From positions 1-36,211 of the forward strand of contig CALRBJ010000004.1 in NCBI GenBank assembly GCA_943354205.1: a stretch of 36,211 bases of DNA, read 5' to 3'. Made by a program: the position numbers and the translations under genes. Positions 1,869 to 34,683 of the stretch are shown piece by piece. How positions within the stretch are numbered: the first letter of the stretch is position 1; each line of letters starts with the position of its first letter. Below the pieces are notes generated by a model. It saw nothing but the letters and a program-made list of their open reading frames with translations, made no database searches and was not told the DNA's origin. The DNA is from Candidatus Nomurabacteria bacterium. Lineage in GTDB: Bacteria > Patescibacteriota > Minisyncoccia > Phycocordibacterales > UBA9973.

Positions 1869-1876
1869 TGTATAAT
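1869..1876 (+). promoter_or_regulatory. -10 element (TGTATAAT) 7 nt upstream of GTG 1884
   Basis: TATAAT at 1871-1876 preceded by TG. No Shine-Dalgarno sequence between it and the start. Confidence 0.4.
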
Positions 1877-1883
1877 TATTTGT

Positions 1884-4800
1884 GTGAAAAAATATATTTT
1901 CCTGTTTTTATTTTTATTCTCCTTTTTTCTGTTTTCAAATCCAAGGGTATTTGCTGATCTCGCCACCGGCCAAATCACCGAAGATACCACGATAGGTCCA
2001 GAAAACAATCCTTACGATTTTATAAATACCGGTGTCCATATTCATCCTGGGGTCACACTCACTGTTTTACCGGGCGTAGAATTTCTCTCTACTGGTTTTT
2101 ACAATGAAGGCACTTTAAATGCGCTTGGCACTGAATCAAGCAGGATCAATTTCAATAATACAAATTTCTTTACCGCATCTCTGTCTACCACAAATATTAG
2201 CTATGCTGATTTTGATGGAGCAGATGCTTGGTTTGCCAATCAGGGCGCGATGAATGTGGACCACACGAATATAAGCAATGTGGACGCCACAGCTTTTTCT
2301 AGTTGGCACTATCCGGCGACCCTAAATTTAAGTTATGTTAATTTTTCAAACATAAATGGCAGTGCGATAGAGATGTTTCAAGGCATACCCCTTGTGATCG
2401 ATCATTCTACTTTTGATACAGGACAGATTGGTATTCTAATCACAGATGGGTCGAGCCTAGACGCTGATCACTTGCTAATAAAAAATCAAACTATTTCTGG
2501 AATAGAGAGCTTGAATGATGCGCAATTGATGCGTATAAAAAATAGTGAAATTACACAAAACAATGTAGGTATTTATGCAAGCGTAAATGAGCAAGTAGAC
2601 ATTTCTGGCAACAGCATACATGGCAATACTATGGGTGCAAAAGTCGATAGTGCGCCAGACTTGGATTTCTCCGGCAATTGGTGGGGAAGCGCTAGCGGGC
2701 CTACGCATGCGAGCAACCCTGGTGGAACTGGCGATGCTATTTCTGACAATATTATTTATTCAAATTTTCTGACCGAAGATCCATTCAACCCAACCCCGCC
2801 TCCTCCGCCAACCAAAGATCCGGTTATTTTGATTCCGGGGATAATGGGCTCGGAACTAAATAAAAATTACGGAGATTTTGGGAATATTTGGGCGAATATT
2901 ATAGATATATTAACCCCTGGTCCTGATAGTTTCTTGAATGATTTATCTTTGAATTTAGACGGAAGTGAAAATTCTAGTTTCCCGATGACTGTCGGTGATA
3001 TTATTCGTCATACTATGGTTGGTTTTATAGATAATCATGTTTTTGATGGCATGATTTCTACACTCGAATTAGGGGGATATATGGAGGGTACAGATCTTTT
3101 TGTATTTCCTTACGATTGGCGTAAAGATAATTCTGAGTCAGCACTTTTATTAAAAAATAAAATAGAACAAGTACTCGCCCAAACTGGTAAAACGAAAGTA
3201 GACATCATCGCGCACAGCATGGGTGGGTTGGTGGCAAAGAAATATATTGCCGACAATGGCGCAAATAGTATAGACCAATTAATTTTCCTCGGTACCCCAC
3301 ACTTGGGTGCGCCGAAAGCATTTAAAGCTCTAATGTATGGAGATGATATGGGAGGAAATCTTTTTGGCAAAATTCATTTTCTAAATCCAAATAGAGTAAA
3401 AATAATTTCTCAAAATATGCCGGCCACATACCAGCTTTTACCAAGCAGAAAATATGTAGACACAAATGGCAATAAATATGTCACAGATTTGGTCACTCAA
3501 TATTTATCTGGATCTGGCAATAATAACTATCTTTTAAATTATGACGACACAAATACATTTATGATCAACCAAGGTAGAAATTCATCCATGATTCCTCTCG
3601 CCGACAATTTTCACGGAAGTATAGATAGTTTAGATTTGTCTGGTGTAAATACTTACAATTTTGCGGGCTGTGGTAGAGAAACTATCGGTAAAATTACGGC
3701 TACAAAAGAAAAAAGTACTACTTCAAATGGAGTTTCGATAAAAGACGATTACAAATTGAGCTACACAAATGGCGACGACACTGTGCCTTTGCTTTCGTCT
3801 GTCGTGAATTATGGTGAAAAATATTATGTAAAAGGTTTTAGCCACGGTTCTCTGCCGTCGGGCACAGGTGTGCCCGATACAGTGCTGGCTATTCTCTCTG
3901 GCGACAGTATTCCAACTTTTTCAAATATAAGCACGAGTATAAACCCATGTTTTGTTTCAGGCAAAGTCGTCAGTGCGCACAGCCCAGTGTCGCTTGATAT
4001 TTATGATAGCCAAAATTACCATACAGGGTTTGATATAAATGGCGATATTGAATACGGCATAGATGGGGTGTCTTATGATGAAATAGAGGGTGTGAAGTAT
4101 GCTTTCTTGCCGGAGGGCGCGGATTATAGGGTGGTCACTCGTGCTACCGATACCGGCGCATACGATTTTTATGTGGAAGAAATCGCCAGTGACGACACAA
4201 AGACAGCCGAGTATTATTGGAATGAAGTACCGCTCGATACTTTGAATGCAAATGCAGAAATAGATATTACAAGTGGCTCGCAAAATTATGAAATAAAAAT
4301 CGATGAGGATGGGGACAGCGTGTTTGAGAAAACCTTGATGCCAAGCTCTAGTCTTTCCGGGGCGCAATCGCTCGACACGATTCCTCCGCAAACAAGTGTG
4401 ACCACATCCGGGCAAACACTAGCGCTAGATTCTACAGACGATAATTCTGGCGTATTAAAAACAGAATATTCTACTGATAATACAAATTGGAATTTATACA
4501 CAAAATCATTTTCCACTGCTGGCACAGTATATTATTTTTCCACCGACAATGCCGGCAATATCGAGGCTATAAAAAGTGTAGATATGCCTACACCACCCTC
4601 AAACCCACCTTCTTCAGGCGGAGGAGGACATGCAGCTATTATTTTTCCACAAAGCCTAGATACTGTTGCATTTATTCCCCATGACAAGGGGGATAAAGGA
4701 GGTTTGATTAATTTGATTCCGAGCCCAGTATTAAAAAATATCGCATTCAACCCTCCAACCCCAAAACCCACTCAACCAAAAATAACAGAACAAAACCCGA

Positions 4801-4925
4801 CCACAAATACATTATCAGCCAACGCTGGAAGTGCTGGTATCCCGATAAAAGCCATAACGATAGTGGTGTCTGTCGGTATAATCGGTTGGGCGATTATTCT
4901 ATATAGGAAATTTTTGCTAAAATAA
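1884..4925 (+). CDS. Large cell-anchored surface protein: signal peptide, parallel beta-helix, LCAT/lipase-type alpha/beta hydrolase, Ig-like region, C-terminal TM anchor
   Basis: Signal peptide MKKYIFLFLFLFSFFLFSNPRVFA. PbH1/NosD-like repeats ending in NWWGSASGP. Pro linker PTPPPPPT. Lipase motifs PVILIPGIMGSEL, YDWR, nucleophile elbow AHSMGG (about 3210-3227), GDDTVP, SHGS. Module DTIPPQTS...DNAGNIE resembles an Ig-like domain. Pro-rich stalk, then helix IVVSVGIIGWAIILY followed by RKFLLK. Confidence 0.85.
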   Translation: MKKYIFLFLFLFSFFLFSNPRVFADLATGQITEDTTIGPENNPYDFINTGVHIHPGVTLTVLPGVEFLSTGFYNEGTLNALGTESSRINFNNTNFFTASLSTTNISYADFDGADAWFANQGAMNVDHTNISNVDATAFSSWHYPATLNLSYVNFSNINGSAIEMFQGIPLVIDHSTFDTGQIGILITDGSSLDADHLLIKNQTISGIESLNDAQLMRIKNSEITQNNVGIYASVNEQVDISGNSIHGNTMGAKVDSAPDLDFSGNWWGSASGPTHASNPGGTGDAISDNIIYSNFLTEDPFNPTPPPPPTKDPVILIPGIMGSELNKNYGDFGNIWANIIDILTPGPDSFLNDLSLNLDGSENSSFPMTVGDIIRHTMVGFIDNHVFDGMISTLELGGYMEGTDLFVFPYDWRKDNSESALLLKNKIEQVLAQTGKTKVDIIAHSMGGLVAKKYIADNGANSIDQLIFLGTPHLGAPKAFKALMYGDDMGGNLFGKIHFLNPNRVKIISQNMPATYQLLPSRKYVDTNGNKYVTDLVTQYLSGSGNNNYLLNYDDTNTFMINQGRNSSMIPLADNFHGSIDSLDLSGVNTYNFAGCGRETIGKITATKEKSTTSNGVSIKDDYKLSYTNGDDTVPLLSSVVNYGEKYYVKGFSHGSLPSGTGVPDTVLAILSGDSIPTFSNISTSINPCFVSGKVVSAHSPVSLDIYDSQNYHTGFDINGDIEYGIDGVSYDEIEGVKYAFLPEGADYRVVTRATDTGAYDFYVEEIASDDTKTAEYYWNEVPLDTLNANAEIDITSGSQNYEIKIDEDGDSVFEKTLMPSSSLSGAQSLDTIPPQTSVTTSGQTLALDSTDDNSGVLKTEYSTDNTNWNLYTKSFSTAGTVYYFSTDNAGNIEAIKSVDMPTPPSNPPSSGGGGHAAIIFPQSLDTVAFIPHDKGDKGGLINLIPSPVLKNIAFNPPTPKPTQPKITEQNPTTNTLSANAGSAGIPIKAITIVVSVGIIGWAIILYRKFLLK

Positions 4926-4929
4926 TAAT

Positions 4930-5250
4930 ATGAATTTCAAATCTACATGGTGGGGAAAAATAATCTTAGTTTTTCTATCTTATGTTGTTTTTTGGTTTAT
5001 TTTTTATGGCGCAATATTTTTAATACCAGAAGATTCTTTCTACCTAAAAAAGAATCCCATTTTAGAACTAGTAATTCCATATATTTTTATTTTTGTTCCC
5101 GTAATAAGTTTTTTTATGGCAAAATTTCTTAAAATATCGTTGAATATAAAATATATGTATATACTTAATATTTTTCTTCTACCTGTCCTAATTTTAGTAA
5201 CTTTTTGGATTGAATTAGGAAGGTCCGTGCATCATTTGTTTAGTTTTTAA
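4930..5250 (+). CDS. Small multi-pass membrane protein, hypothetical
   Basis: 106-aa ORF starting 4 nt after the surface-protein stop. Three to four hydrophobic helices and very AT-rich. No recognisable family. Confidence 0.55.
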   Translation: MNFKSTWWGKIILVFLSYVVFWFIFYGAIFLIPEDSFYLKKNPILELVIPYIFIFVPVISFFMAKFLKISLNIKYMYILNIFLLPVLILVTFWIELGRSVHHLFSF

Positions 5251-5266: not shown

Positions 5267-5275
5267 TGCTATAAT
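5267..5275 (+). promoter_or_regulatory. Extended -10 TGCTATAAT, 9 nt before ATG 5285
   Basis: TGnTATAAT match. The short leader actcctcac has no Shine-Dalgarno sequence. Confidence 0.55.
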
Positions 5276-5284
5276 ACTCCTCAC

Positions 5285-6940
5285 ATGACGCAAAATGAGG
5301 CATTGGACATATTGAAGACCGGAGCGAATGTATTCCTCACGGGCGAGCCGGGGGCGGGGAAAACGCACACTATTCGCGAATATGTGGCCTATTTGCGCGC
5401 TCACGGCATCGAGCCCTCTATCACAGCATCCTCGGGTATTGCCGCCACGCATATTCACGGGCAGACCATTCATTCTTGGGCCGGTATCGGCATAAAAAAT
5501 CATTTGAGCGATTACGATTTGGACGCGATGAGCAGTAAAGAATATTTGGTAAAAAAAATATCTCGCGCGACGGTTTTGATAATCGATGAAATTTCTATGC
5601 TTGGCGCCGGCACTTTGCAAATGGTAGATCAGGTTTGCCGTGCGATAAGGAACAACGACAGCGCATTTGGCGGGCTCCAAGTAGTGCTCGTCGGCGACTT
5701 TTTCCAGCTCCCGCCGATTTCAAGCTACGGTTCCAATTCCGAATTTGCGTATGAAAGCCCAGCTTGGAAATCTTTGTCTTTAATCACCTGCTATATCACC
5801 GAGCAACACCGCCAGGAGGACGGCGATTTACTCGCAGTGCTCTCGGCCATCCGCCGAAACGAAGTAGAAGAAATGCATTTTGAAAAACTGCAGTCGCGTA
5901 TCACTACAAAAGAGGCTAGTCCCGAAGGTATCACGCGTTTGTTTACCAAAAATGTTTCTGTCGATGCGCTCAACGACGAATCTTTAAAAAAAATTGTTGG
6001 CTTGGATTATGAATACGAGATGCAATCACAGGGTAAAGTTTCGATGGTGGAAGCTTTAAAAAAAGGATGCCTTTCGCCGGAAGTTTTGGTTTTAAAAAAA
6101 GATAGCGTGGTCATGTGTACTAAAAACAATATGAATGCTGGGTTTGTAAACGGCACATTGGGCAGGGTTGTCGATTTTCAAAAGGGAACTGATTATCCGA
6201 TCATCCAAACTCGCGACGGTCGCACCCTCACTATCGAACCTATGGAGTGGGTCGTCGAGGAGGACGGCAAAATCCGCGCGCGCATCACCCAAATACCTCT
6301 TCGCTTGGCCTGGGCGATCACCGTGCACAAGAGCCAAGGCATGTCGCTCGACTCCGCCGTCATGGACCTCTCGGACGTATTCGAATATGGGCAGGGCTAT
6401 GTGGCGCTCTCTCGCGTGCGCACTCTCTCGGGCATACATCTTTTTGGCTTAAATCAAAAATCTCTGCAAGTGCATCCCGAGGTAGCCTCGGTCGACGCGC
6501 ATTTTCGCCAAGTTTCCGACAAAGCCATGCATTCGTTCAGAGCTCTTGAAGAAAATGAATTGAAAAATATGCATGCCAATTTTATCCGCGCTTGCGGGGG
6601 TAATTTAGTGCCGGTGAAAAATGTTAAACCCGGTAAAAAAATATCCACCCAAGAAAAAACCTTGGCTCTTTTAGAAGCGGGCTTTACTATTTCAGGCATC
6701 GCCAAGGAGCGCGATCTAAACATCGGCACCATTATCGACCATGTGGATTATTTGGTAAAAAATGGCTCGTTTTCAAAAGAATCAGCGCTCAATCTATGCG
6801 ACCCTCGGCTCAAGCTCTCTTTGCCGATCATAAACAAAGCCTTTGATAAAAAGGGCACTATCGCGCTGGCTCCTGTGTTTTCGCACCTAAAAGGCGTTTA
6901 TTCATACGACGAGCTAAAGCTGGCCCGGGTGTTTTATTAG
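5285..6940 (+). CDS. PIF1/RecD-family ATP-dependent DNA helicase with C-terminal helix-turn-helix
   Basis: Walker A GEPGAGKTH, LIIDEISM, VGDFFQLPP, TVHKSQGMSLD, YVALSRVR. The C-terminal ISTQEKTLALLEAGFTISGIAKERDLNIGTIIDHVDYL resembles the HTH tail common in bacterial PIF1-like helicases. Confidence 0.9.
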   Translation: MTQNEALDILKTGANVFLTGEPGAGKTHTIREYVAYLRAHGIEPSITASSGIAATHIHGQTIHSWAGIGIKNHLSDYDLDAMSSKEYLVKKISRATVLIIDEISMLGAGTLQMVDQVCRAIRNNDSAFGGLQVVLVGDFFQLPPISSYGSNSEFAYESPAWKSLSLITCYITEQHRQEDGDLLAVLSAIRRNEVEEMHFEKLQSRITTKEASPEGITRLFTKNVSVDALNDESLKKIVGLDYEYEMQSQGKVSMVEALKKGCLSPEVLVLKKDSVVMCTKNNMNAGFVNGTLGRVVDFQKGTDYPIIQTRDGRTLTIEPMEWVVEEDGKIRARITQIPLRLAWAITVHKSQGMSLDSAVMDLSDVFEYGQGYVALSRVRTLSGIHLFGLNQKSLQVHPEVASVDAHFRQVSDKAMHSFRALEENELKNMHANFIRACGGNLVPVKNVKPGKKISTQEKTLALLEAGFTISGIAKERDLNIGTIIDHVDYLVKNGSFSKESALNLCDPRLKLSLPIINKAFDKKGTIALAPVFSHLKGVYSYDELKLARVFY

Positions 6941-6969: not shown

Positions 6970-6978
6970 TGGTATAAT
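6970..6978 (+). promoter_or_regulatory. Extended -10 TGGTATAAT upstream of the SWIB gene (leader of about 36 nt)
   Basis: Exact TGnTATAAT. Preceded by overlapping hairpins gccctg/cagggc and ccacag/ctgtgg. Confidence 0.5.
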
Positions 6979-7020
6979 GGGCAAATCGCATTTTATTATA
7001 AAGTAACATAACTAAATTAT

Positions 7021-7275
7021 ATGGCGGAAAAAACATCTGCATTTATGAAACCAATGACTTTGAGTCCAGAGCTCGAAGCAGTAGTCGGAAAGGGCCCAAT
7101 GCCTCGCTCCGAAGTAGTGAAGGCTCTTTGGGTATATATAAAGAAGAATAATCTTCAAGACCCAAAGGCAAAGCGCAATATCGATGCCGACGCAAAGCTA
7201 AAGGAAGTATTCGGTGGCAAAGCGCGCGTAGACATGTTTGAAATGACAAAGCTCGTTTCAAAACACCTTTCGTAA
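7021..7275 (+). CDS. SWIB/MDM2-domain protein
   Basis: 84 aa. LSPELEAVVGKGPMPRSEVVKALWVYIKKNNLQDPKAKRNIDADAKLKEVFG matches the SWIB domain pattern. Confidence 0.85.
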   Translation: MAEKTSAFMKPMTLSPELEAVVGKGPMPRSEVVKALWVYIKKNNLQDPKAKRNIDADAKLKEVFGGKARVDMFEMTKLVSKHLS

Positions 7276-7753: not shown

Positions 7754-7762
7754 TGTTAAAAT
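7754..7762 (+). promoter_or_regulatory. Extended -10 TGTTAAAAT, 7 nt before ATG 7770 (leaderless-type)
   Basis: The same 9-mer recurs at 24089(+), 19849(-) and 29390(-), each 6-7 nt from an ATG. Confidence 0.6.
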
Positions 7763-7769
7763 ACTTTGT

Positions 7770-9056
7770 ATGAAAACCAAACTCGAAACTAATTTAGAGA
7801 CCGATTACGATGTTATCGTGGTTGGTGGCGGCGCATCAGGCATGATGGCGGCTTATACAGCCGCACTGCGCGATTTGCGAGTGTTGGTAATAGACAAGAA
7901 TAAAAGACTTGGTGAAAAGCTCTCGATCACTGGTGGTGGGCGATGCAACATCACCAATGCCGAGGAGGATGTACACACATTTTTAAAAAATTACGGCAAA
8001 GCAAATAAATTTTTATATTCGCCATTCTCCCAATTCGGCGTGAAAGACACTTTTGATTTTTTTGAATCACATGGTTTACCGCTCGTGGTCGAAGCTCGCA
8101 AGCGCGCTTTTCCAGAAACCATGAGCGCTGAATCGGTGCGCACTCTCATGGAAAAACTTTTAAAGAAAAGGGGAGTAGTGGTCAAACTCGGCCGACCGGT
8201 TAAAAAGATAATGCGCGATGAAAACGGAGTGACTGGTGTAGTCGTCGATGGCACCACCTATATTGCAAAGACCTATATCCTCGCCACTGGGGGCCTCTCG
8301 CATGCCGAGACGGGTTCTTCTGGCGATGGCTTCGGCTGGCTCTCCGATTTGGGGCATACCGTGGCCGAGCCGACCCCGTCTATCGTGCCCCTTTCTGTAA
8401 AAGATTCCTGGGTGCACAAGCTATCGGGTGTATCGCTCTCGTTTATGAAAATAACCTTTTTTGAAAATGCCCGCCCGGATGACCCGGTCGGACGGGGCGT
8501 GAAAAAATTCCAACGCAAAGGCAAAATTTTATTTACTCACTTTGGCCTCTCCGGCCCACTTATTTTAAATAGCGCGCACGCTGTAGCTGATTTATTTCAC
8601 GCCGGTGTGGTAACGGCCACGATAGACATGTATCCCGACACCGACATTGGCACCCTGGAATCTAAAATCATAAAAATATTTGATGCGAACAAAAATAAAA
8701 TTTTCAAAAGCGTGATAAAAGAGTGCGTGCCCGAGGGCATGACCGAAGCCGTGATTTCCAATTCTAAAATAGACAGCGCCAAAAAAGTGCACAGCATCAC
8801 CCGCGAAGAGCGCCGAGCATTTGTAGAGCTTTTGAAAGCCATGCCGCTCACTATCACCGGCCTCATGGGCTACGACCGCGCGGTTATCGCGGATGGGGGA
8901 GTATCGCTCTCCGAAGTAGATATGCGCACGATGCGAAGCCTCAAGTGCCCAAATTTGGCTATCACCGGCGACCTACTACATGTAAATCGCCCATCGGGAG
9001 GCTTTTCGCTCCAGCTGTGCTGGACTTCAGGCTATGTAGCGGGCATGCATGCCTAG
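7770..9056 (+). CDS. HI0933/BaiN-family NAD(P)/FAD-dependent oxidoreductase
   Basis: YDVIVVGGGASGMMAA dinucleotide fold, ITGGGRCNITN, LFTHFGLSGP. Carries in-frame repeat copy A at 8460-8507. Confidence 0.9.
   Translation: MKTKLETNLETDYDVIVVGGGASGMMAAYTAALRDLRVLVIDKNKRLGEKLSITGGGRCNITNAEEDVHTFLKNYGKANKFLYSPFSQFGVKDTFDFFESHGLPLVVEARKRAFPETMSAESVRTLMEKLLKKRGVVVKLGRPVKKIMRDENGVTGVVVDGTTYIAKTYILATGGLSHAETGSSGDGFGWLSDLGHTVAEPTPSIVPLSVKDSWVHKLSGVSLSFMKITFFENARPDDPVGRGVKKFQRKGKILFTHFGLSGPLILNSAHAVADLFHAGVVTATIDMYPDTDIGTLESKIIKIFDANKNKIFKSVIKECVPEGMTEAVISNSKIDSAKKVHSITREERRAFVELLKAMPLTITGLMGYDRAVIADGGVSLSEVDMRTMRSLKCPNLAITGDLLHVNRPSGGFSLQLCWTSGYVAGMHA
8460..8507 (+). repeat. GC-rich palindromic in-frame module, copy A (encodes FENARPDDPVGRGVKK)
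   Basis: 38/40 nt identical to 22327-22366 in the same codon phase. Imperfect hairpin gcccgcccgg...ccggtcggacggggc. Confidence 0.9.
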
Positions 9057-9065
9057 TGCTATACT
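9057..9065 (+). promoter_or_regulatory. Extended -10 TGCTATACT, 6 nt before ATG 9072
   Basis: Matches the window-wide grammar of TGnTAnAnT plus 6-7 nt plus ATG. Confidence 0.6.
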
Positions 9066-9071
9066 AAGCGC

Positions 9072-9437
9072 ATGATTATAATATTTTTTATCGGGTGAGT
9101 TTTACTAGGAGGTTACTTTATCTATTCCGGCTACAACCATTTTAAAAAATTGGATGCCATGACTGCGTATGCAAAGATGAAGGGTGTTAAACATCCCAAA
9201 ATTGCGACTCAAATCACCGGGGGTATGCTTCTTTTGGGTGGAGCTCTCTTGGTTATAGGGCTCAAAATGAAAATCGGGGTCATTATTCTATCTATATTTA
9301 TGATCGGTGTTTCGTTCATGATGCATGCTTTTTGGAAAATAAAAGATCCGGCATTGCAGGCAACTGAAAAAATGGCTTTCTTGAAAAACATGGCTCTCTT
9401 GGGCGCGCTTCTGATGCTTTTCCACACGTTGTGGTAA
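9072..9437 (+). CDS. DoxX-family membrane protein interrupted by an in-frame TGA at 9096-9098 (recoded codon, or a very recent pseudogene)
   Basis: MIIIFFIG-TGA-VLLGGYFIYSGYNHFKKLDAMTAYAKMKGV... is continuous with track ORF 9150-9437. DoxX-like HAFWKIKDP...FLKNMALLGALL. No in-frame ATG, GTG or TTG between 9099 and 9149. Confidence 0.6.
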
Positions 9438-11230: not shown

Positions 11231-11239
11231 TGTTATAAA
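11231..11239 (+). promoter_or_regulatory. Extended -10 TGTTATAAA, 6 nt before ATG 11246
   Basis: Fits the leaderless spacing and supports ATG 11246 over the track's TTG 11225. Confidence 0.5.
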
Positions 11240-11245
11240 TTTCTT

Positions 11246-13030: not shown

Positions 13031-13099
13031 CTCTACCGGGAATCGAACCCGGATTTAAAGCTTGAGAAGCTTCCGTCCTAACCGTTAGACGATAGAGCC
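13028..13099 (-). tRNA. tRNA-Glu (anticodon CUC), no encoded CCA
   Basis: Reverse complement is GGCTCTATCGTCTAACGGTTAGGACGGAAGCTTCTCAAGCTTTAAATCCGGGTTCGATTCCCGGTAGAGTCA. Cloverleaf with a 7-bp acceptor (one G-U), D arm GTCT/GGAC, anticodon loop TTCTCAA and T arm CCGGG-TTCGATT-CCCGG. Confidence 0.9.
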
Positions 13100-13114
13100 T
13101 AAAAATACCCAAAT

Positions 13115-13144: not shown

Positions 13145-13153
13145 TGGTATAAT
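13145..13153 (+). promoter_or_regulatory. Extended -10 TGGTATAAT, 11 nt before ATG 13165
   Basis: Exact TGnTATAAT, divergent from the tRNA promoter. Confidence 0.55.
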
Positions 13154-24099: not shown

Positions 24100-24103
24100 A
24101 AGT

Positions 24104-26494: not shown

Positions 26495-26497
26495 AGT

Positions 26498-26503
26498 TAT
26501 AAT
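26498..26503 (+). promoter_or_regulatory. -10 TATAAT abutting the transketolase N-terminal gene
   Basis: ttataat followed by gtgtgggtg. The spacing favours GTG 26510 as a leaderless start over the track's GTG 26504. Confidence 0.45.
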
Positions 26504-27388
26504 GTGTGGGTGATTCTCACCGATGCTAAAATAAAATTTTTAGAAGAAAAAGCCAACGACATTCGCATGTCGATAATTGAAATGCTTTTGGAAGCAGGCT
26601 CTGGGCACACTGCCGGCCCGCTCGGCATGGCCGACATATTTGCACTTCTCTTTTTTCATACATTAAAACAAGATCCAAAAAATCCTAGCTCTCCAGAGCG
26701 CGATAGGCTAGTGCTTTCCAATGGACACATTTGCCCAGTCTACTATGCGACCATGGCGCATGCAGGATATTTTCCTATATCTGAATTAAAAACTTTAAGA
26801 AAATTCGGTTCGCGTTTGCAAGGTCACCCGCATCGAGAATTTATGCCGTGGCTCGAAACATCTTCCGGACCTTTAGGTTCTGGAATTTCCCAGGCAGTTG
26901 GTATGGCTATTGCCGAGCGTATCGATCGGGGCGTGGGCTCAAATAAATTTATTTATTGTTTAACCTCGGATGGTGAACACGACGAAGGCAACACTTGGGA
27001 AGCAATACTGCTCGGCGCCAAAGAAAAACTCCACAATCTAATTGTGATAGTAGATCGCAACAATATTCAAATAGATGGCTTTACCGAAGATGTGATGCCT
27101 CTAAATGATTTGGCCCAAAAATACGAAGCATTCAATTGGCACGTGCAAGAAGTCGACGGGCACAATTTTGAAGCCATGAATTCCGCAATATCAAAAGCCC
27201 AAGCAGTCTTTGAAAAGCCTTCGGTCATCATCGCTCGCACTATCCCTGGCAAAGGTGTGCCCGAATTTGAGCGCGATTTTCGCTGGCATGGATACGATCC
27301 AAATGGCGCGAAAGCAAAAGAAGATTACACGCATGCATTAAAAGAGCTCCGCACGCTCGGCGGAAAAATTAAAAGCGAACACCAATAA
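26504..27388 (+). CDS. tkt: Transketolase, N-terminal (TPP-binding) subunit
   Basis: GSGHTAGPLGMADI, SNGHICP, TSDGEHDEGNTWEA. The start may be GTG 26510. Confidence 0.92.
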   Translation: MWVILTDAKIKFLEEKANDIRMSIIEMLLEAGSGHTAGPLGMADIFALLFFHTLKQDPKNPSSPERDRLVLSNGHICPVYYATMAHAGYFPISELKTLRKFGSRLQGHPHREFMPWLETSSGPLGSGISQAVGMAIAERIDRGVGSNKFIYCLTSDGEHDEGNTWEAILLGAKEKLHNLIVIVDRNNIQIDGFTEDVMPLNDLAQKYEAFNWHVQEVDGHNFEAMNSAISKAQAVFEKPSVIIARTIPGKGVPEFERDFRWHGYDPNGAKAKEDYTHALKELRTLGGKIKSEHQ

Positions 27389-28380
27389 TGTTAAACCCGA
27401 AATTAAAATTAAATCCGAAAGTTTTTATGGACGATGTGGCGCAAGAGCCGATTCGCAAAGGTTTTGGCGTCGGCCTCGTGCAAGCGGGAGAAAAATATGA
27501 AAATATCGTGGCATTGTGCGCCGACCTTACCGAGAGTACGCAAATGCTTCCATTCAAAGAAAAGTTCCCGAATCGTTTTGTGGAAATCGGCGTGGCCGAG
27601 CAAAACTTGGTGACAGTTGCTTCTGGCATGGCGGCCATGGGCAAGCGCCCATTCTGCTCTTCATATGCTATGTTTTCACCTGGCCGAAATTGGGAGCAAA
27701 TTCGCACCACGATTACCTACAATGATCGACCGGTGGTGATCGTCGGCTCTCATGCTGGTGTATCTGTGGGCCCAGATGGTGGCACGCACCAGGCGATAGA
27801 AGACATCGCTCTCATGCGTGTATTGCCAAATATGATTGTGCTCTCGCCATGCGATTCTATCGAGGCCAAGAAAGCCACCATGGCGCTCGGTAGTATTGAA
27901 AAGCCTGCATATCTGCGTTTGGCTCGCGAAAAGACAGCGATAATTACCACTGAAGAAACTCCATTTCAAATAGGCAAAGCAGAAATATTCTTCGCGCCAG
28001 ATGGAGTAGCGCATGTGGGTATCATCGCCACTGGCGCGCTGGTGCGTACCGCCATGCTTGCCGCTCGCGATTTAGAAAAAGAGGGGATAAAAGTAAAAGT
28101 CATGAACCTCTCTACGATAAAACCGCTCGACACTGAAGCCGTAATAAATCTAGCCAAAGAAACTAAAAAAATAATTACCGTAGAAGAGCATCAGGTCATG
28201 GCGGGTATGGGCAGCGCGGTTGCCGAATGTTTAGCTCAAAATTATCCTGTGCCGATAGAATTTATCGGCATTCAAAACAAATATGGCCAGTCTGGTAAAC
28301 CAGAAGAATTGATCGAGCACTATGGTATGGGGCGAGAATCGATAAAAGAGGCGGTGCGAAAAATAATGAAGAGAAGCTAG
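27388..28380 (+). CDS. tkt: Transketolase, C-terminal (pyrimidine-binding) subunit
   Basis: FVEIGVAEQNLV and GPDGGTHQAIEDIALMR. The ATG overlaps the upstream TAA (TAATG). Confidence 0.92.
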   Translation: MLNPKLKLNPKVFMDDVAQEPIRKGFGVGLVQAGEKYENIVALCADLTESTQMLPFKEKFPNRFVEIGVAEQNLVTVASGMAAMGKRPFCSSYAMFSPGRNWEQIRTTITYNDRPVVIVGSHAGVSVGPDGGTHQAIEDIALMRVLPNMIVLSPCDSIEAKKATMALGSIEKPAYLRLAREKTAIITTEETPFQIGKAEIFFAPDGVAHVGIIATGALVRTAMLAARDLEKEGIKVKVMNLSTIKPLDTEAVINLAKETKKIITVEEHQVMAGMGSAVAECLAQNYPVPIEFIGIQNKYGQSGKPEELIEHYGMGRESIKEAVRKIMKRS

Positions 28381-28381: not shown

Positions 28382-29383
28382 TTATATTTCTTTTAATTTA
28401 TAATCCGCTGGTGCGTTTTTTAAATATTCCAAAAGTTTGGCTTGTGTCAGAAGTCCTTCCTGAGCTCCTATATATGATACTACCGACATTGAGTTTATCG
28501 GCGCCCAAGCAAGTGCTTCCTTTAAACTTTTACCCATGGCTAAACAAGAAACAATAGTGGAAGCATAAGCATCGCCAGCCCCCGTGCGTTCTACTGGGGT
28601 ATGCGGGTATATCGGCATAAAATAGCAAGCGCCATCGGTATCGCGAGCGTAGGCACCATTTATTCCATCGGTCAGCACTACTATTTTAGGGCCTAGGTCG
28701 TGCATCATGCCCATTAAAATTTTTTTATCTTTTTCCTCGGTACCTAGAATTTTTTGCGCCTCTTCTATATTGCAAAAGAACACTTCAGATTGCGAATAAA
28801 TATCAGCCAATTTTTCTTTGCCGAGCGATATTTGAAATGTACCAGGCTGGAAAGCCATCTTTGTATTTGGGTTTTTCTTTAACCACTCTGCGATTTCATG
28901 ATGAAATGCTTCTGTATTGGATCCGAGTGAAGACAGGTAGAGCCATTTTGGGCCAGCCAAATTCGAAGGCATGTGTTTTTCAAATGGTGAGTGGTTTACT
29001 AGAATTGTACGCTCTACATCGTACCAAAGCACATAGTGATAGTTTGTCGGGAGTTTTTTATCGGTAGACACAAAATCTGTGGCCACATGGTCGTGCTTTA
29101 AAGACTCTAGACAAAGCTTGCCATTTTCATCATCGCCAATATTTGCAATCAGTGCCGAAGATAGCCCGAGCCTAGAAGCAGATACTGAAGCATTCGGACT
29201 GTTGCCGACAGCGTAGAGAACTTTATGGAATTCAAAAGGTACCTTGTCGCCGAAGCGCACGCAAAGTTTGCAATTTGCTTGGTCTATATCGCAATGTGTC
29301 TCGGCATCTTTCAATCTAATAAAGTCGTCGACTACCAAATCTCCAATGGCCACAAAATCGTAGTGTTTTTTTCCGAATAACAT
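28382..29383 (-). CDS. PfkB-family carbohydrate kinase
   Basis: N-terminal VAIGDLVVD and C-terminal TGAGDAYAS motifs. Confidence 0.88.
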   Translation of the reverse strand: MLFGKKHYDFVAIGDLVVDDFIRLKDAETHCDIDQANCKLCVRFGDKVPFEFHKVLYAVGNSPNASVSASRLGLSSALIANIGDDENGKLCLESLKHDHVATDFVSTDKKLPTNYHYVLWYDVERTILVNHSPFEKHMPSNLAGPKWLYLSSLGSNTEAFHHEIAEWLKKNPNTKMAFQPGTFQISLGKEKLADIYSQSEVFFCNIEEAQKILGTEEKDKKILMGMMHDLGPKIVVLTDGINGAYARDTDGACYFMPIYPHTPVERTGAGDAYASTIVSCLAMGKSLKEALAWAPINSMSVVSYIGAQEGLLTQAKLLEYLKNAPADYKLKEI

Positions 29384-29389
29384 GGCTGT

Positions 29390-29398
29390 ATTTTAACA
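29390..29398 (-). promoter_or_regulatory. Extended -10 (TGTTAAAAT on the minus strand), 6 nt before ATG 29383
   Basis: Minus strand reads tgttaaaat-acagcc-ATG. Confidence 0.6.
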
Positions 29399-29404
29399 AA
29401 CTTT

Positions 29405-29413
29405 TGCTATAAT
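29405..29413 (+). promoter_or_regulatory. Extended -10 TGCTATAAT, 6 nt before ATG 29420
   Basis: tgctataat-tgcgat-ATG. Confidence 0.65.
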
Positions 29414-29419
29414 TGCGAT

Positions 29420-30301
29420 ATGTCAAAATCACTACGAGAATATGTAGCGGAAGCGCGAGAAAAGGGTGTAGCCATCGGGCATTTTAATTTTGCGACGATT
29501 GAAGTTTTCCATGCGATTGTGGAAGCGGCGGGGGAGCTCGGCGTGCCGGTCATTCTCGGCACGGCCGAAGGCGAGGAGGGATTCGTCGGTACGAACGAAG
29601 CCGTGGCTTTGGTCAAAACCGCTCGCGAAGAAACGAATCAGCCGATATTTTTAAATGCCGATCATCATTACACTTTTGAAAATGTAAAAAAATCCATCGA
29701 TGCGGGCTACGACATGGTCATTTTTGATGGGGCAAAACTCTCGATAGAAGAAAATACTAAAATCACGAAGCAATGCGTAGACTACGCGAGAGTGATTTCG
29801 AAAAATACCGGACGAGATATTTTAGTGGAAGCGGAGCTCGGTTATATCGGCCAAGCATCGGGGATTTTGGATGCCATTCCTGAAGGTGTGGGGCTGACTG
29901 AAAATGAATTAACCAAGCCTGAAGAAGCCAAAAATTTTATCGATTCTACCGGCATAGATATGTTTGCGCCATCCGTCGGCAATGTGCACGGCATGCTCCG
30001 CTCGGTACCCGACCCAGCGCTCAATATTAATAGGATAAAAGAAATACACGATGCGGTCTCTATCCCACTCGTCCTCCACGGCGCTTCCGGCAATAGCGAT
30101 GAGGATATCAAGGCCGCAATTTCAGCCGGCATCAGTGTGGTACATGTGAACACCGAACTCCGCCGAGCCTGGATCGACGCCGAAAAAGCCCACATCGCCG
30201 CCCATCCCGACGACGTCGCCCCGTACAAACTCCTCGCCGAATCCAAAGAAGCAGTCAAATCCGTCGTCCTCCAAAAATTAAAAGTGTTTAATAATCTATA
30301 A
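29420..30301 (+). CDS. fba: Class II fructose-bisphosphate aldolase
   Basis: GHFNFATIE, LNADHH, ELGYIG, LVLHGASG, KVNTE-type VHVNTELR. Confidence 0.92.
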   Translation: MSKSLREYVAEAREKGVAIGHFNFATIEVFHAIVEAAGELGVPVILGTAEGEEGFVGTNEAVALVKTAREETNQPIFLNADHHYTFENVKKSIDAGYDMVIFDGAKLSIEENTKITKQCVDYARVISKNTGRDILVEAELGYIGQASGILDAIPEGVGLTENELTKPEEAKNFIDSTGIDMFAPSVGNVHGMLRSVPDPALNINRIKEIHDAVSIPLVLHGASGNSDEDIKAAISAGISVVHVNTELRRAWIDAEKAHIAAHPDDVAPYKLLAESKEAVKSVVLQKLKVFNNL

Positions 30302-30625: not shown

Positions 30626-30634
30626 TGGTATAAT
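30626..30634 (+). promoter_or_regulatory. Extended -10 TGGTATAAT, 6 nt before ATG 30641
   Basis: tggtataat-caccaa-ATG. Confidence 0.65.
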
Positions 30635-30640
30635 CACCAA

Positions 30641-32359
30641 ATGGATTTGAAAGAAGAAATAAAAAAGTTTTTTAAGGGAGATGTGGATGTTTCTCCGCAA
30701 GCATTGGAAAAATATTCGCACGATGCGAGCTTGTTTGAAGTACGGCCAAAGGTCGTGGTCTTTCCACGCGATGCAGAAGATATAAAAAATTTGGTGAAAT
30801 GGGTAAATGAAACTTCCCCTAGGGCGGACCTAGGGGAAGGTAAGCTCTCGATTACCGCTCGGGCGGCAGGCACTTGCATGGCTGGCGGACCGCTTGGCGA
30901 GTCGATTATTTTAGACACTACTCGCTACATGCACAAGATTTTGCATATAGAAAAATATAACAAAGAACATGTATACAAAATGCACCCAGCATTCGTGGGT
31001 GCCAGCGATATAAATATTTCCGGCGAGGCGACCGTTGAGCCTGGTTGTTTTTATCGAGATTTTGAAAAAGTCACGCTTGAACATGATTTGCTTTTGCCTT
31101 GCTATACCGCTTCCAAGAGCATAAACGCTGTCGGCGGTATGGTCGGCAACAATTCTGGTGGGGAGTTGACTTTAAAATACGGCAAAACTGAAGACTATGT
31201 GGCCGAATTGAAAGCAGTATTTTCCGACGGCAACGAATATACTATCCATCCACTCACTCGGCATGAACTCGATTTGAAAATGGCGCAAAATGATTTCGAA
31301 GGAGAAATATATAAAAATCTTTTTTCTCTTATTCAAAAAAATGAAGATGAAATAAAAAATGCTAAACCAAAGGTCACCAAAAATAGCGCCGGCTATACCC
31401 TTTGGAATGTGTGGGATGAAAAAACGCAAACTTTTGATTTGCCAAAGCTCATCGTCGGCTCCCAAGGCACACTAGCCATCACCACCCAAATCACTTTCCG
31501 ATTAGTTGAGCCCCTAAAAAATTCTGCGCTCTTTGTGATATTTATGTATAGCCTAGATTCGCTCGGGAATATCGTAAATGATGCACTCTCTGCGAGTCCA
31601 GAATCGATAGAGGCCTACGATGACAAAACTATAAAACTAGCCGTGCGGTTTTGGTATGGATTTATAAAAAAGAGGGGATTATGGGGCGCCATAAAGCTTG
31701 GTATTTCATTCCTACCCGAGCTTGGCATGATGTTTAAAGGCATGCCAAAATTGGTCATCCTTGTAAACTGCGCCGGACGTGATAAAGAGGAAGTAAAAAA
31801 TAAAATAGATTCGCTCGGTAAACTATTTCAAAAATATAAAAATATAAAAACCAGAAAAGTATTTAGCGCAGCCGAAGCCGACAAATATTGGACTATCCGC
31901 CGAGATTCTTTTGCGCTACTTCGCGAGCATTTTCAAAATAAAAGAACCGCGCCGTTTGTCGATGATGTGGTAGTGCCGGTATCGATGCTGCCAAAATTCT
32001 TGCCAAAGCTGACGGAAATATTAGACAGAAATAAACTCATCTACAATATGCACGGCCACGCCGCCTCGGGCAATTTCCACATCATCCCGCTCCTAACCGC
32101 CGGCGACTCTTTAAACAAAGAGCTAATTATGAAAGTTTCCGACGAAGTCTACACCCTCGTGCTCGATATGCACGGCTCCATCACCGCCGAGCACAACGAC
32201 GGCATCATCCGCACGCCATTCCTCCTACAAATGTATGGCCAAAAAATAATAGACATATTTGAGCAAATCAAGAACATTTTCGACCCCAAAAACATCTTCA
32301 ACCCAGGCAAAAAAGTCGGCGGCTCCAAAGAATACATAAAATCCCACCTGGCCCAATAG
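30641..32359 (+). CDS. FAD-linked oxidase (GlcD/D-lactate dehydrogenase-like)
   Basis: PCMH-type FAD-binding N-domain (VVFPRDAEDIKNLVKW..., ARAAGTCMAGG, GGMVGNNSGG). C-terminal HGSITAEHNDG and FDPKNIFNPGK. Confidence 0.88.
   Translation: MDLKEEIKKFFKGDVDVSPQALEKYSHDASLFEVRPKVVVFPRDAEDIKNLVKWVNETSPRADLGEGKLSITARAAGTCMAGGPLGESIILDTTRYMHKILHIEKYNKEHVYKMHPAFVGASDINISGEATVEPGCFYRDFEKVTLEHDLLLPCYTASKSINAVGGMVGNNSGGELTLKYGKTEDYVAELKAVFSDGNEYTIHPLTRHELDLKMAQNDFEGEIYKNLFSLIQKNEDEIKNAKPKVTKNSAGYTLWNVWDEKTQTFDLPKLIVGSQGTLAITTQITFRLVEPLKNSALFVIFMYSLDSLGNIVNDALSASPESIEAYDDKTIKLAVRFWYGFIKKRGLWGAIKLGISFLPELGMMFKGMPKLVILVNCAGRDKEEVKNKIDSLGKLFQKYKNIKTRKVFSAAEADKYWTIRRDSFALLREHFQNKRTAPFVDDVVVPVSMLPKFLPKLTEILDRNKLIYNMHGHAASGNFHIIPLLTAGDSLNKELIMKVSDEVYTLVLDMHGSITAEHNDGIIRTPFLLQMYGQKIIDIFEQIKNIFDPKNIFNPGKKVGGSKEYIKSHLAQ
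30816..30836. repeat. 8-bp-stem GC-rich hairpin (cccctagg-gcgga-cctagggg) in frame inside the FAD-oxidase gene
   Basis: Perfect stem. Encodes part of SPRADLGEG just before the conserved ARAAGT block. Confidence 0.75.
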
Positions 32360-32401
32360 TAGACTTTACTTTTTTCTTTTTTTGTATATACTAGTTCCTA
32401 C

Positions 32402-33058
32402 ATGTTTAAATTAACTGCAAAAAAGAGAGAGTCTGGCAAAGGACTCGAAAATCTAAAGGCGGAGGGAATGATTCCAGCTGTTTTTTATGGTTTTAAAAGA
32501 GAAACCACTCCTATCGCTGTATCTCTAAAAGACTTCCGCAAAATCTGGCGTGAAGCTGGCGAATCGAGCGCTATCGTGCTTGAAACAGAGGCTGGCCCGG
32601 TAGATGTGCTCATCCACGACATGCAAACCGACCCTATTTCTGATACTCCTATTCATGTAGACTTTTTGGCTATCGACATGACCAAGAAAATCACCGTGGC
32701 TGTCCCAGTAGAATTTGAAGGCGAGGCGCCAATCGTAAAGGGTGGTACCGTAACTTTGGTAAAAGTGCTTCACGAAGTAGAAGTGGAAGCTCTTCCAAAA
32801 GATTTACCTCACTCACTTTCTGTAGACGTTTCTGCTATGGATGCTCTCGATAGTCAGGTGTTGGTAAAAGACATCGAGCTTCCATCTGGAGTCACCCTCA
32901 TCACTGGAGCCGACGAAGTAGTCGCTTCTATCTCAGAACAAAAAGAAGAAGTGGAAGAAGTTGCCCCAGTATCAATCGCCGATATCGAACTCTCAGAAAA
33001 GAAAGGCAAGAAAGATGAAGAAGGTGGCGAAGCAGTAGCCGAAGAATCTAAGGAATAA
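32402..33058 (+). CDS. rplY: 50S ribosomal protein L25/general stress protein Ctc
   Basis: GMIPAVFYG, IHVDFL and an acidic C-terminal tail. Confidence 0.92.
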   Translation: MFKLTAKKRESGKGLENLKAEGMIPAVFYGFKRETTPIAVSLKDFRKIWREAGESSAIVLETEAGPVDVLIHDMQTDPISDTPIHVDFLAIDMTKKITVAVPVEFEGEAPIVKGGTVTLVKVLHEVEVEALPKDLPHSLSVDVSAMDALDSQVLVKDIELPSGVTLITGADEVVASISEQKEEVEEVAPVSIADIELSEKKGKKDEEGGEAVAEESKE

Positions 33059-33072: not shown

Positions 33073-33081
33073 TGGTATAAT
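33073..33081 (+). promoter_or_regulatory. Extended -10 TGGTATAAT, 7 nt before ATG 33089
   Basis: tggtataat-taaaagc-ATG. Confidence 0.65.
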
Positions 33082-33088
33082 TAAAAGC

Positions 33089-34438
33089 ATGAAAAGAAAG
33101 ATTTTCATGCTTTTAATTTTGTGCCTGGCATTCGGGTCTTTTGCTATTTCTCCGAATAAATCATCCGCAGAAACCCCAGCTGAACAAAAAGCTGCCTTAG
33201 AGGCACAGCTCGCCCAACTCGAGCAAGAAATAGCCTCGAAGCAAGCAGATCTGGATGCTCAAAAAGGCCACTCTGCCAGCCTTTCAAATGAAATAGCTAG
33301 CTTGAAAACAAAAATAAATACCACAAAGGGTTTGATCAGCGCTACAAATCTAAAAATCGTAAAACTCTCCAGTCAGATCGCCGATAAAAATTCGGAAATA
33401 AAAGACCTGTCTTCCAAGCTCGACCACGAACTCGAATCGCTCTCGCAACTCTTGAAAAACACGAATGATTTAGACAATAGTAACTTTGTGGATTTATTGC
33501 TTTCTTCTGACACAGTCTCTGCTTTCTATGGCGACATCACTACATATTCTTCGATAAAAGAAGGGGTGAAAAAATCCGTGGATCAGATAAAAGGCGTAAA
33601 AACTAAAACCGAGACAGTAAAGCAAGAGCTTGTGGTGTCTAAAACCGCGCAAGAAGATGCCAAACAAAAATTGATCGCTGATCAAAAGAAGAAAGAAGCC
33701 GACGAGGCATACCAAAAACAACTCTTGTCTTTGAGTAAAGACAAGGAAAATCAATACCAGCAAATTTTAAACGATCGTCGCGCCAAAGCAGCTTCTATCC
33801 GCTCGGCGCTCTTTTCTCTGGCTGGTGGAGGCGTGGCGATACCTTTCGGTGATGCGTATAAATATGCGCTACAAGTAGAACAAAAGATCGGGGTGCGGCC
33901 TGCATTTCTGCTCGCCATTATTCAGCAAGAATCGAGCTTTGGTATCGACAATGGTTCGTGTTATGTCAGCGACATGGCCACCGGTTCCGGCACGGGGTCG
34001 AAAAGTGGTCGGACGATTTCAAATGTCATGTATCCCAAAGACATACCGATATTTATTTCTCTCATGAACAATCTAGGTCGCGACCCTTTCAAGACCTTGG
34101 TTTCTTGTCCGCAATCTTCCGGCTGGGGCGGAGCGATGGGGCCTGCGCAAATGCTCGCTTCCACATGGGCTCGTCTACAGCCTAGGATAGCCACATTGCT
34201 CTCTATAAGCACTCCAGACCCTTGGCGCCCGATAGATGCGTTCTTGGCTAGCGGTTTGTACCTGTACGATGCCGGAGCGCGTGGAGGAAGCTATACTTCC
34301 GAGCTAAATGCCGCCTGCCAATACTTTTCCGGGCGAAATTGCTCTAGGTCAAAGGCTGGGAGCTCGTATGGCAAATCTGTCATGGCCCGCGCGAGCAAAA
34401 TCCAAACCACTATGATCGACCCATTGCAAGGGGTTTAA
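33089..34438 (+). CDS. Secreted coiled-coil protein with a C-terminal MltB/SLT-type lytic transglycosylase domain
   Basis: Signal peptide. About 220 aa of heptad-like coiled coil. Then LLAIIQQESSFG (catalytic Glu motif) and GGAMGPAQMLASTW. Confidence 0.8.
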   Translation: MKRKIFMLLILCLAFGSFAISPNKSSAETPAEQKAALEAQLAQLEQEIASKQADLDAQKGHSASLSNEIASLKTKINTTKGLISATNLKIVKLSSQIADKNSEIKDLSSKLDHELESLSQLLKNTNDLDNSNFVDLLLSSDTVSAFYGDITTYSSIKEGVKKSVDQIKGVKTKTETVKQELVVSKTAQEDAKQKLIADQKKKEADEAYQKQLLSLSKDKENQYQQILNDRRAKAASIRSALFSLAGGGVAIPFGDAYKYALQVEQKIGVRPAFLLAIIQQESSFGIDNGSCYVSDMATGSGTGSKSGRTISNVMYPKDIPIFISLMNNLGRDPFKTLVSCPQSSGWGGAMGPAQMLASTWARLQPRIATLLSISTPDPWRPIDAFLASGLYLYDAGARGGSYTSELNAACQYFSGRNCSRSKAGSSYGKSVMARASKIQTTMIDPLQGV

Positions 34439-34443
34439 AGATG

Positions 34444-34452
34444 TGCTAATAT
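34444..34452 (+). promoter_or_regulatory. Extended -10 TGCTAATAT, 9 nt before the rpmE ATG
   Basis: tgctaatat-ctcctcact-ATG. Confidence 0.5.
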
Positions 34453-34461
34453 CTCCTCACT

Positions 34462-34683
34462 ATGAAGAAAGAAATCCACCCAGTATATTTTAGCGACTCG
34501 AAGGCTATCTGCGCATGCGGTAGCGCTTTTAAAGTCGGCTCTACTCTCGCTGACATCAGCGTTGAAATCTGCAGCCAATGCCACCCATTCTATACAGGCA
34601 AGGAAAACCTTCTCGACACTGCCGGACGCGTAGACAAATTCAAAAAGCGTATCGCTTCTGCCAAAGCCAAGAAGGCTAAGTAG
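34462..34683 (+). CDS. rpmE: 50S ribosomal protein L31 (Zn-ribbon type)
   Basis: MKKEIHP..., CxC...[11 protein letters not shown]. Confidence 0.93.

Follow-up and report, generated by a model that had tools for sequence, protein, structure and literature searches.

What directs ribosomes to start codons that lack a Shine–Dalgarno (SD) sequence and have a promoter immediately in front of them? The question is raised by a 36.2-kb stretch of DNA from Candidatus Nomurabacteria (assembly GCA_943354205.1, contig CALRBJ010000004.1, positions 1–36,211; the whole stretch is referred to as the window), in which an earlier, sequence-only reading noticed extended −10 promoter elements of the form TGnTAnAAT placed 6–7 nucleotides (nt) before start codons and took them to imply pervasive leaderless mRNAs. 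The analysis of this arrangement in the window and in related genomes leads us to propose that sigma-70-type extended −10 promoters probably give rise to leaderless mRNAs in this lineage, alongside termination–reinitiation and a few leadered genes.

The window is densely coding, with 43% G+C, one tRNA gene (tRNA-Glu) and no rRNA gene. As a lineage sample we used 80 related loci (1.3 Mb) from metagenome-assembled genomes (MAGs) whose GatB is 61–75% identical to that of the window; these are species-level relatives, represented by loci rather than whole genomes, and the MAGs are labelled Candidatus Nomurabacteria, Paceibacterota, Paceibacteria, Minisyncoccia and, in some cases, 'Saccharibacteria'. 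From this kinship, the window belongs to an uncultivated, ultrasmall, Nomurabacteria-like bacterium of the candidate phyla radiation; its sequence is also present in an ENA metagenome assembly. Their A+T content is 57–70%, and crude calling of open reading frames (ORFs) yielded 1,251 genes.

A −10 element at a fixed distance from start codons

A positional logo upstream of start codons, which the sequence-only reading had specified beforehand as one check on its proposal, was run on the 80 loci and showed TAnAAT enriched at −12. The motif begins at this position in 12–13% of the crude gene calls versus 0–1% at most positions between −40 and −16, and TGnTAnnnT begins at −15 in 11–13% of them. 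Among starts with TAnnnT at −12, where T−12, A−11 and T−7 are invariant, T is found at −15 in 72%, G at −14 in 65%, A at −9 in 79% and A at −8 in 68%. A T-rich/TTG patch at −35 to −33 corresponds to the 17-bp spacing of a sigma-70 −35 box, the −1 position is a pyrimidine in 79% (T in 61%), and +1 is a purine. These are the features of a sigma-70 extended −10 promoter, and they put the predicted +1 on the A of ATG.

The same spacing emerges when gene calls are left aside. Both strands of the 80 loci together hold 608 TGnTAnAAT sites, and 148 of these (24%) have an ATG exactly 6 nt downstream, compared with 62 at 7 nt, 28 at 8 nt, 23 at 9 nt and 17 at 10 nt, over a background of about 8. Nearly all spacer-6 ATGs (136/148) open ORFs of at least 80 codons. 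At this spacer ATG is enriched approximately 18-fold, GTG barely and TTG not at all, and a scrambled control motif gave minor peaks at spacers 5–6 that were far under those of the real motif. We then scored sites with a 9-column extended −10 weight matrix, trained on the relatives with the window excluded. With spacers of 5–9 nt, the matrix placed an element before 25–33% of first-ATG calls versus 0.5–1.3% of in-frame internal ATGs. The spacers of strong elements were 6 nt in 159 cases, 7 nt in 65, 8 nt in 36, 9 nt in 18, 10 nt in 12, 11 nt in 8, 12 nt in 7 and 5 nt in 3, and the peak at 6 nt equals the usual distance from a −10 box to the transcription start. All loci that contain more than a few genes show the element; it is a trait of the lineage and not a peculiarity of the window.

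In the window itself, TGNTANAAT-N6-ATG has 8 matches, versus 0.20 ± 0.43 in 100 dinucleotide shuffles that served as the chance level. The matrix finds 49 sites of at least 8 bits on either strand, 16 of which lie 5–12 nt upstream of one of the 37 gene starts, versus 0.2 expected. A direct coordinate check recovered all 19 motif/start pairs that the sequence-only reading had listed, each with the position and spacing it had given, including the spacers of 9–11 nt for starts 5285, 34462, 13165 and 22642; a twentieth pair, TGCTAAAAT-N6-ATG at start 4930, had been omitted. Twelve of the 37 starts have a strong element at spacer 6–7, four a weaker one at spacer 5–7 (1884, 17015, 21607 and 11246), four a strong one at spacer 9–11 and two a weak one at spacer 9–10 (32402 and 17246). 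In numbers, 'pervasive' thus stands for 16 starts with spacers of 5–7 nt and six more at 9–11 nt, and the remaining 15 are without the element.

The starts that the element points to agree with protein homology: Pfam profile N-termini and orthologue alignments match the promoter-defined starts. For the TATAAT at 26498 two GTG codons had been considered; GTG 26510, 6 nt from the element, is retained and GTG 26504 is dropped. For start 11246, both profile and orthologue N-termini side with this ATG and not with TTG 11225. The start assigned to DoxX, 9072, is one from which homologues align from residue 1, and the earlier reader overlooked a premature in-frame TGA in this gene. The element thus helps annotation in that it fixes MAG start codons to the nucleotide (26510 not 26504, 11246 not 11225, and DoxX 9072), and it also revealed the premature stop in DoxX.

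Whether a gene has the element depends on the space in front of it. On the same strand, genes that overlap or lie 0–3 nt from the upstream stop have it in 2–5% of cases, and the share is 18% for gaps of 4–10 nt, 33% for 11–20 nt, 49% for 21–40 nt and 44% for 41–80 nt; between divergent genes whose start codons are 21–40 nt apart it reaches 74%. Presence is also conserved by family across species. The element is kept in 85% of orthologues of the 449-residue protein p449, 82% of the exonuclease, 81% of pfkB, 70% of gap, 69% of fba, 69% of RmuC, 58% of gatB and 57% of rpiB, and is mostly missing from rpe (8%), tktC (5%), prfA (4%), MYG1 (2%) and the RNA recognition motif (RRM) protein (0%; 0/20 orthologues). 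Presence or absence per family in the relatives agrees with the same genes in the window.

SD sequences are absent. The sequence-only reading had seen none before its genes, and in the window the count of SD-like words at −15 to −1 is indeed zero. Across the 80 loci, SD-like 4-mers occur at no upstream position in more than 1% of starts, and SD-like words at −16 to −5 precede 5.5% of starts versus 12.4% of internal ATGs, so that they are depleted, operon-internal genes included. Among Parcubacteria, the anti-SD sequence CCTCCT has been found in only 48%, and SD helices are presumably not formed in the rest (Tsurumaki et al. 2022, PMC9297842). A 16S rRNA gene was sought in the window and in the 80 loci, in which no rRNA is present. 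Pattern scans of the genome collection for variant 16S tails, one of them exhaustive for one tail class (95 matches), recovered Gracilibacteria, Absconditabacteria/SR1, Peribacteria, Weeksellaceae, Rhodothermales, Micrarchaeota and Sulfolobales.

These scans gave observations of their own. In Peribacteria, SR1/Absconditabacterales and Gracilibacteria, the 3′ tail of the 16S rRNA is devoid of CCTCC (...GACCACCATTCT, ...GGATCACTGATCT and ...GGACCACCTTTCT; loci L082, L092, L102, L126, L188, L318, L323, L326, L328, L340, L351 and further ones). The few genes adjoining the SR1 and Gracilibacteria 16S genes have no start-proximal −10, in a sample too small to conclude from, and translation initiation in these three groups may differ from that in the Nomurabacteria group. 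Many Chryseobacterium/Weeksellaceae 16S genes (L201–L306) end in ...GGAACATCTCATTTT instead of ...CACCTCCTT, an altered anti-SD.

A further observation concerns the sample. The gatB loci of MAGs labelled 'TPA_asm: uncultured Candidatus Saccharibacteria' (L006, L007, L016, L018, L025, L028 and others) are 61–73% identical to that of the window, and these MAGs have the promoter arrangement of the window, as do the Nomurabacteria and Paceibacterota MAGs. From the gatB identity and the common promoter arrangement, the 'Saccharibacteria' label on them is probably wrong.

Leaderless initiation and its alternatives

In the mechanism that we propose, TGnTAnAAT, with little or no −35 box, would set the start of RNA polymerase on the A (rarely the G) of the start codon or 1–5 nt before it. 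The mRNAs would then have neither a 5′ leader nor an SD site, and the ribosome would bind the 5′-terminal AUG directly; we infer the transcription start positions and this mode of ribosome recruitment, as well as the state of the 16S anti-SD in the lineage. Genes more than a few nucleotides from an upstream stop would have an extended −10 promoter of their own and a leader that is absent or at most about 5 nt long, and those with spacers of 9–11 nt probably have leaders of 2–5 nt. A start that overlaps or abuts the preceding stop would go without a promoter and probably depend on termination–reinitiation. A minority of genes with real leaders (csp, SWIB, RRM and dnaJ) would use some SD-independent route. 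About 40% of the window genes would be served by other routes, that is, coupling to the upstream gene, or real leaders (SWIB, csp and RRM). Because the promoter would set both the 5′ end of the transcript and the N-terminus of the protein, the mechanism would explain why many genes within same-strand arrays have promoters of their own, some of which lie in the final codons of the gene before. Terminator-like hairpins are few between same-strand genes of the window, so transcripts from successive promoters are probably nested.

Several points weigh against this reading. The −35 region is weak, with TTG at 13–17% versus a background of 7.8%, and a test for compensation found the −35 no stronger where TG is absent. 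About 15 of the 37 window genes have no start-proximal promoter, and the six with spacers of 9–11 nt would be short-leadered and not strictly leaderless. The transcription start positions are predictions from promoter geometry only. No Paceibacteria 16S 3′ end is among the matches of the pattern scans for variant tails. Last, a generic −35/−10 scan of the window gave 44 hits versus 32.8 ± 5.4 in shuffles; this two-hexamer scan is uninformative because the promoters have no good −35. The step from start-proximal promoters to leaderless mRNAs, first made in the sequence-only reading, is nevertheless supported, in that all the computational tests we ran agree with a transcription start on the start codon or no more than a few nucleotides from it.

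Could the arrangement be a product of composition? AT-rich intergenic DNA (the loci are 57–70% A+T) might mimic TATAAT, or gene starts might be miscalled, but this explanation is refuted by the 0.2 matches in shuffles against 8 seen and by a peak confined to a single nucleotide without any gene calls; the peaks of the scrambled motif are minor, internal ATGs have the element in 0.5–1.3% of cases, and it is conserved orthologue by orthologue. We give chance practically no weight. A different proposal is that the element acts in RNA, as a non-SD ribosome-binding signal, UAUAAU 6 nt before AUG, in leadered mRNAs, where it could be read by bS1 or by an altered 16S tail. This has been proposed for the non-SD motifs of Bacteroidetes, GeneMarkS-2 group B, which precede all genes (PMC6028130). 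Six nucleotides is also a typical SD-to-start distance, and promoter and ribosome-binding-site distances can coincide according to GeneMarkS-2 (PMC6028130); the absence of SD, the weak −35 and the lack of a Paceibacteria 16S 3′ end among the tail-scan matches would all be compatible with a signal in RNA. The details of the element, however, are those of a promoter. Its consensus is exactly the sigma-70 extended −10, with TG at −15/−14 and invariant T−12, A−11 and T−7; the pyrimidine at −1 and the purine at +1 suit a transcription start, and there is no enrichment of TTG starts, on whose first base RNA polymerase initiates poorly. Unlike a group B motif, the element is absent before genes that abut an upstream stop. 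Leaders between divergent genes with starts 21–40 nt apart would push both promoters into the neighbouring coding sequence, and tRNA-Glu, a non-coding gene, also has a site in front of it by this matrix. We therefore regard a signal acting in RNA as quite improbable.

It is also conceivable that the promoters are real and that most transcripts start several nucleotides upstream or downstream of the ATG, which would produce very short leaders or the use of other start codons, so that 'leaderless' would overstate the case. Spacers of 8–12 nt make up about a quarter of the strong cases, and for rpmE and gatB the spacer stays near 11 nt from species to species. The peak at 6 nt is narrow, however (159 cases versus 3 at 5 nt), and Pfam and orthologue N-termini agree with the ATG that follows the element. 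Leaders of up to 5 nt are, moreover, usually regarded as functionally leaderless in the mycobacterial literature. On balance we consider it unlikely that transcription starts at other positions as a rule, and keep to leaderless initiation from extended −10 promoters as the probable explanation of the arrangement.

More tentatively, and with somewhat less than even confidence, we suggest that a class-level lineage of the candidate phyla radiation (CPR), comprising Nomurabacteria and related Paceibacteria, may have abandoned the SD/anti-SD interaction entirely and may use only reinitiation and leaderless mRNAs, the latter each from an extended −10 promoter of its own that is often embedded in the preceding gene, with promoter placement replacing the ribosome-binding site; this could be the mechanism behind the loss of the anti-SD in Parcubacteria. 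Leaderless initiation in the Nomurabacteria group would offer a concrete and testable answer to how anti-SD-less Parcubacteria start translation, a matter left unsaid by Tsurumaki et al. 2022 (PMC9297842), and would extend leaderless-dominated expression to the CPR, which makes up a very large share of bacterial diversity and is for the most part uncultivated. It is relevant, too, to the view of leaderless initiation as ancestral or as a trait that tends to go with reduced genomes. Where promoters lie in the final codons of upstream genes, coding and regulatory constraints overlap, and operon predictions from intergenic distance will mislead for the Nomurabacteria group.

Promoter–start pairs and other genes of the window

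Pfam searches confirmed dnaK (its 5′ end lost at the window edge), dnaJ, cysS, corA, rplU, obg, gatB, gap, rpiB, rpe, a split transketolase, a PfkB kinase, a class II aldolase, rplY, rpmE, a class I release factor and the RRM protein. On the forward strand, strong elements stand 6 nt before ATG 4930 of a 106-residue membrane protein (TGCTAAAAT, 4915..4932, in the final codons of a 1013-residue gene), 7 nt before ATG 7770 of an HI0933-like flavoprotein (TGTTAAAAT, 7754..7772), 6 nt before ATG 9072 of DoxX (TGCTATACT, 9057..9074, the start being backed by homologues), 6 nt before ATG 24104 of gap (TGTTAAAAT, 24089..24106, found in 70% of gap orthologues) and 6 nt before ATG 30641 of an FAD-linked oxidase (TGGTATAAT, 30626..30643). 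The gap promoter had been described as embedded in the last codons of gatB, and its −10 (24089) does overlap the final codons and the TAG stop of that gene. Two further elements on this strand are AGTTATAAT, 6 nt before GTG 26510 of the N-terminal half of transketolase (26495..26512), and TGGTATAAT, 7 nt before ATG 33089 of the 449-residue secreted protein (33073..33091), which is kept in 85% of orthologues. On the reverse strand, TGATAAAAT lies 6 nt before ATG 18671 of RmuC (18669..18686; strong, kept in 69% of orthologues).

The most compact arrangements are two divergent pairs. In the first (19840..19879), a space of 34 nt separates ATG 19842 of the exonuclease on the reverse strand, preceded by TGTTAAAAT at 6 nt, from ATG 19877 of YqeY on the forward strand, preceded by TGGTATAAT at 6 nt. 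In the second (29381..29422), the space is 36 nt, with TGTTAAAAT 6 nt before ATG 29383 of the PfkB kinase (reverse strand) and TGCTATAAT 6 nt before ATG 29420 of the class II aldolase (forward strand). The two 9-mers fill each of these gaps of 34–36 nt, so there is no room for leaders.

Weaker elements precede four starts. GTG 1884 of the 1013-residue LCAT-like hydrolase has CTGTATAAT at 7 nt (1868..1886, forward), without TG and directly after the dnaK terminator hairpin; corA has GTTTATAAT 7 nt before ATG 17015 (17013..17031, reverse), likewise without TG. The element of obg (ATG 21607; 21593..21609, forward) is weak, being either GTATAAAAT at 5 nt or TATAAA at 21594 at 7 nt; the latter has no conserved T at −7, and an element is present in only 9% of obg orthologues. 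Before ATG 11246, TGTTATAAA at 6 nt (11231..11248, forward) is weak and without T at −7, and a signal peptide begins at Met 11246. Longer spacers, all on the forward strand, are found in TGCTATAAT, 9 nt before ATG 5285 of a PIF1-like helicase (5267..5287; predicted leader about 2–3 nt), TGGTATAAT, 11 nt before ATG 13165 of a histidine phosphatase (13145..13167; predicted leader about 4–5 nt), TGATATAAT, 11 nt before ATG 22642 of gatB (22622..22644; spacers of 5–12 nt in 58% of orthologues), TGCTAATAT, 9 nt before ATG 34462 of rpmE (34444..34464), and a weak GTATATACT, 9 nt before ATG 32402 of rplY (32384..32404). Start 17246 has a weak element at a spacer of 9–10 nt.

In the relatives, the rpmE promoter reads aTTTGCTtt...N...TGTGATAAT, then about 11 nt, then ATG; its −35 (TTGC) is recognizable, which is not so for most promoters here, and its short leader is fixed. 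A pyrimidine-rich CTCCTCAC occupies the space between −10 and ATG at 5276–5284 (PIF1-like helicase) and at 34453–34461 (rpmE), and rplU has TCACTCACT. As a candidate conserved element CTCCTCAC was dropped, since it is not kept upstream of rpmE in 35 relatives.

The two halves of transketolase meet in a TAATG stop/start overlap (27386..27390, forward), where no promoter precedes the second half, and represent the coupled class. Other coupled members are corA/cysS at 16104–16113 on the reverse strand, TAAATG at 20685–20690, TAGATG at 34681–34686 (rpmE/prfA), and 30299–30305. Leadered exceptions, both on the forward strand, are the SWIB-domain protein, for which TGGTATAAT ends at 6978, 42 nt before ATG 7021 (6970..7023), and the RRM RNA-binding protein, for which TGCTATACT ends at 35719, about 100 nt before ATG 35823 (35711..35825). 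The gene for a cold-shock protein (csp, 68 residues; 7485–7691), found in an apparent gap between genes, has no promoter close to its start, and the region upstream of it measures about 200 nt. Upstream of tRNA-Glu (13099–13027, reverse), the extended −10 TGTTATTAT at 13115–13123 (13099..13123 with the gene start) lies about 15 nt away and is likely to be the promoter of this gene, so that the weight matrix also picks up the promoter of a non-coding gene.

Three further ORFs stand out. A 246-residue protein on the reverse strand (12120–12860) has a sub-threshold match to Abi_alpha (abortive infection), at 27.5 bits versus a cut-off of 29, and its ORF adjoins tRNA-Glu where the G+C content is lower (36%). 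The 1013-residue protein (1884–4925), which starts with GTG, combines a signal-peptide-like N-terminus with an LCAT/PGAP1-like alpha/beta-hydrolase domain. A 64-residue ORF (25159–25353), whose stop abuts rpiB, likewise occupies an apparent gap, and the ENA assembly annotates a gene there too.

The in-frame TGA of DoxX (9096–9098) is its codon 9 (MIIIFFIG*VLLGG...), where the homologues in loci L057 and L060 have Arg (GRVLFG). The next start codon after it is TTG 9150, and a start there would lose the first transmembrane helix. The alignment suggests a nonsense mutation from CGA to TGA, a pseudogene or an error in the sequence, and not recoding. The 38 gene stops of the window comprise 25 TAA, 13 TAG and no TGA. 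Of 619 confident orthologues in the lineage, 21 (3.4%) have TGA as their stop, at conserved C-termini; the gatB of the closest relative is one of them. An alternative genetic code was considered and is ruled out by these stops and by the DoxX TGA that aligns with Arg. As judged from these alignments, the code is standard and TGA is strongly avoided; a genuine but rare TGA stop in the lineage explains its absence among the 38 window genes.

Comparison with known systems

The architecture described here is that of GeneMarkS-2 group C genomes, and is unusual in having no SD fallback. It is apparently unreported for the Nomurabacteria group: a search of the full-text literature found no paper that ties leaderless initiation or a promoter–start architecture to CPR, Patescibacteria, Parcubacteria or Saccharibacteria, and the main text of the GeneMarkS-2 paper makes no mention of the CPR group (PMC6028130). 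Group C, which is defined by frequent leaderless transcription, comprises Actinobacteria (Mycobacterium tuberculosis) and Deinococcus-Thermus (Deinococcus deserti) (PMC6028130). As in these genomes, a Pribnow box lies 6–8 nt from many start codons, so that a sizeable share of the genes is affected, transcription is predicted to begin on the A or G of the start codon, and the predicted 5′-terminal codon is AUG, less often GUG. The remaining genes of group C genomes use SD sites, whereas SD-like words are depleted everywhere in the lineage studied here. The element also differs, being an AT-rich extended −10, TGnTAnAAT, where GC-rich Actinobacteria have a bare TANNNT, and many of the promoters lie within same-strand arrays and overlap the 3′ end of the upstream gene, which again sets them apart from group C.

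The anti-SD-less Parcubacteria (PMC9297842) belong to the same superphylum-level group as the window, and the CCTCCT loss reported for them is in keeping with the lack of SD here. That work covers the rRNA side only and gives no initiation mechanism; the window lineage may belong to the anti-SD-less subgroup. Among archaea, group D genomes (haloarchaea and Sulfolobus) are alike in that leaderless mRNAs dominate and operon-internal genes use coupling or weak signals; their promoter, a TATA box about 26 nt upstream that is served by the archaeal transcription apparatus, is unlike the one found here. Group B genomes of Bacteroidetes share the lack of SD use and have an A-rich sequence before the start codon, but their mRNAs are leadered and their motif precedes all genes, operon-internal ones included, whereas the element studied here is absent before coupled genes. 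Gram-positive bacteria and E. coli have extended −10 (TGn) promoters of like form, in which TG likewise stands one base before TATAAT and the −35 is weak or dispensable. In those bacteria ordinary leaders follow such promoters, whereas in the Nomurabacteria group the element keeps a fixed distance of about 6 nt from the start codon.

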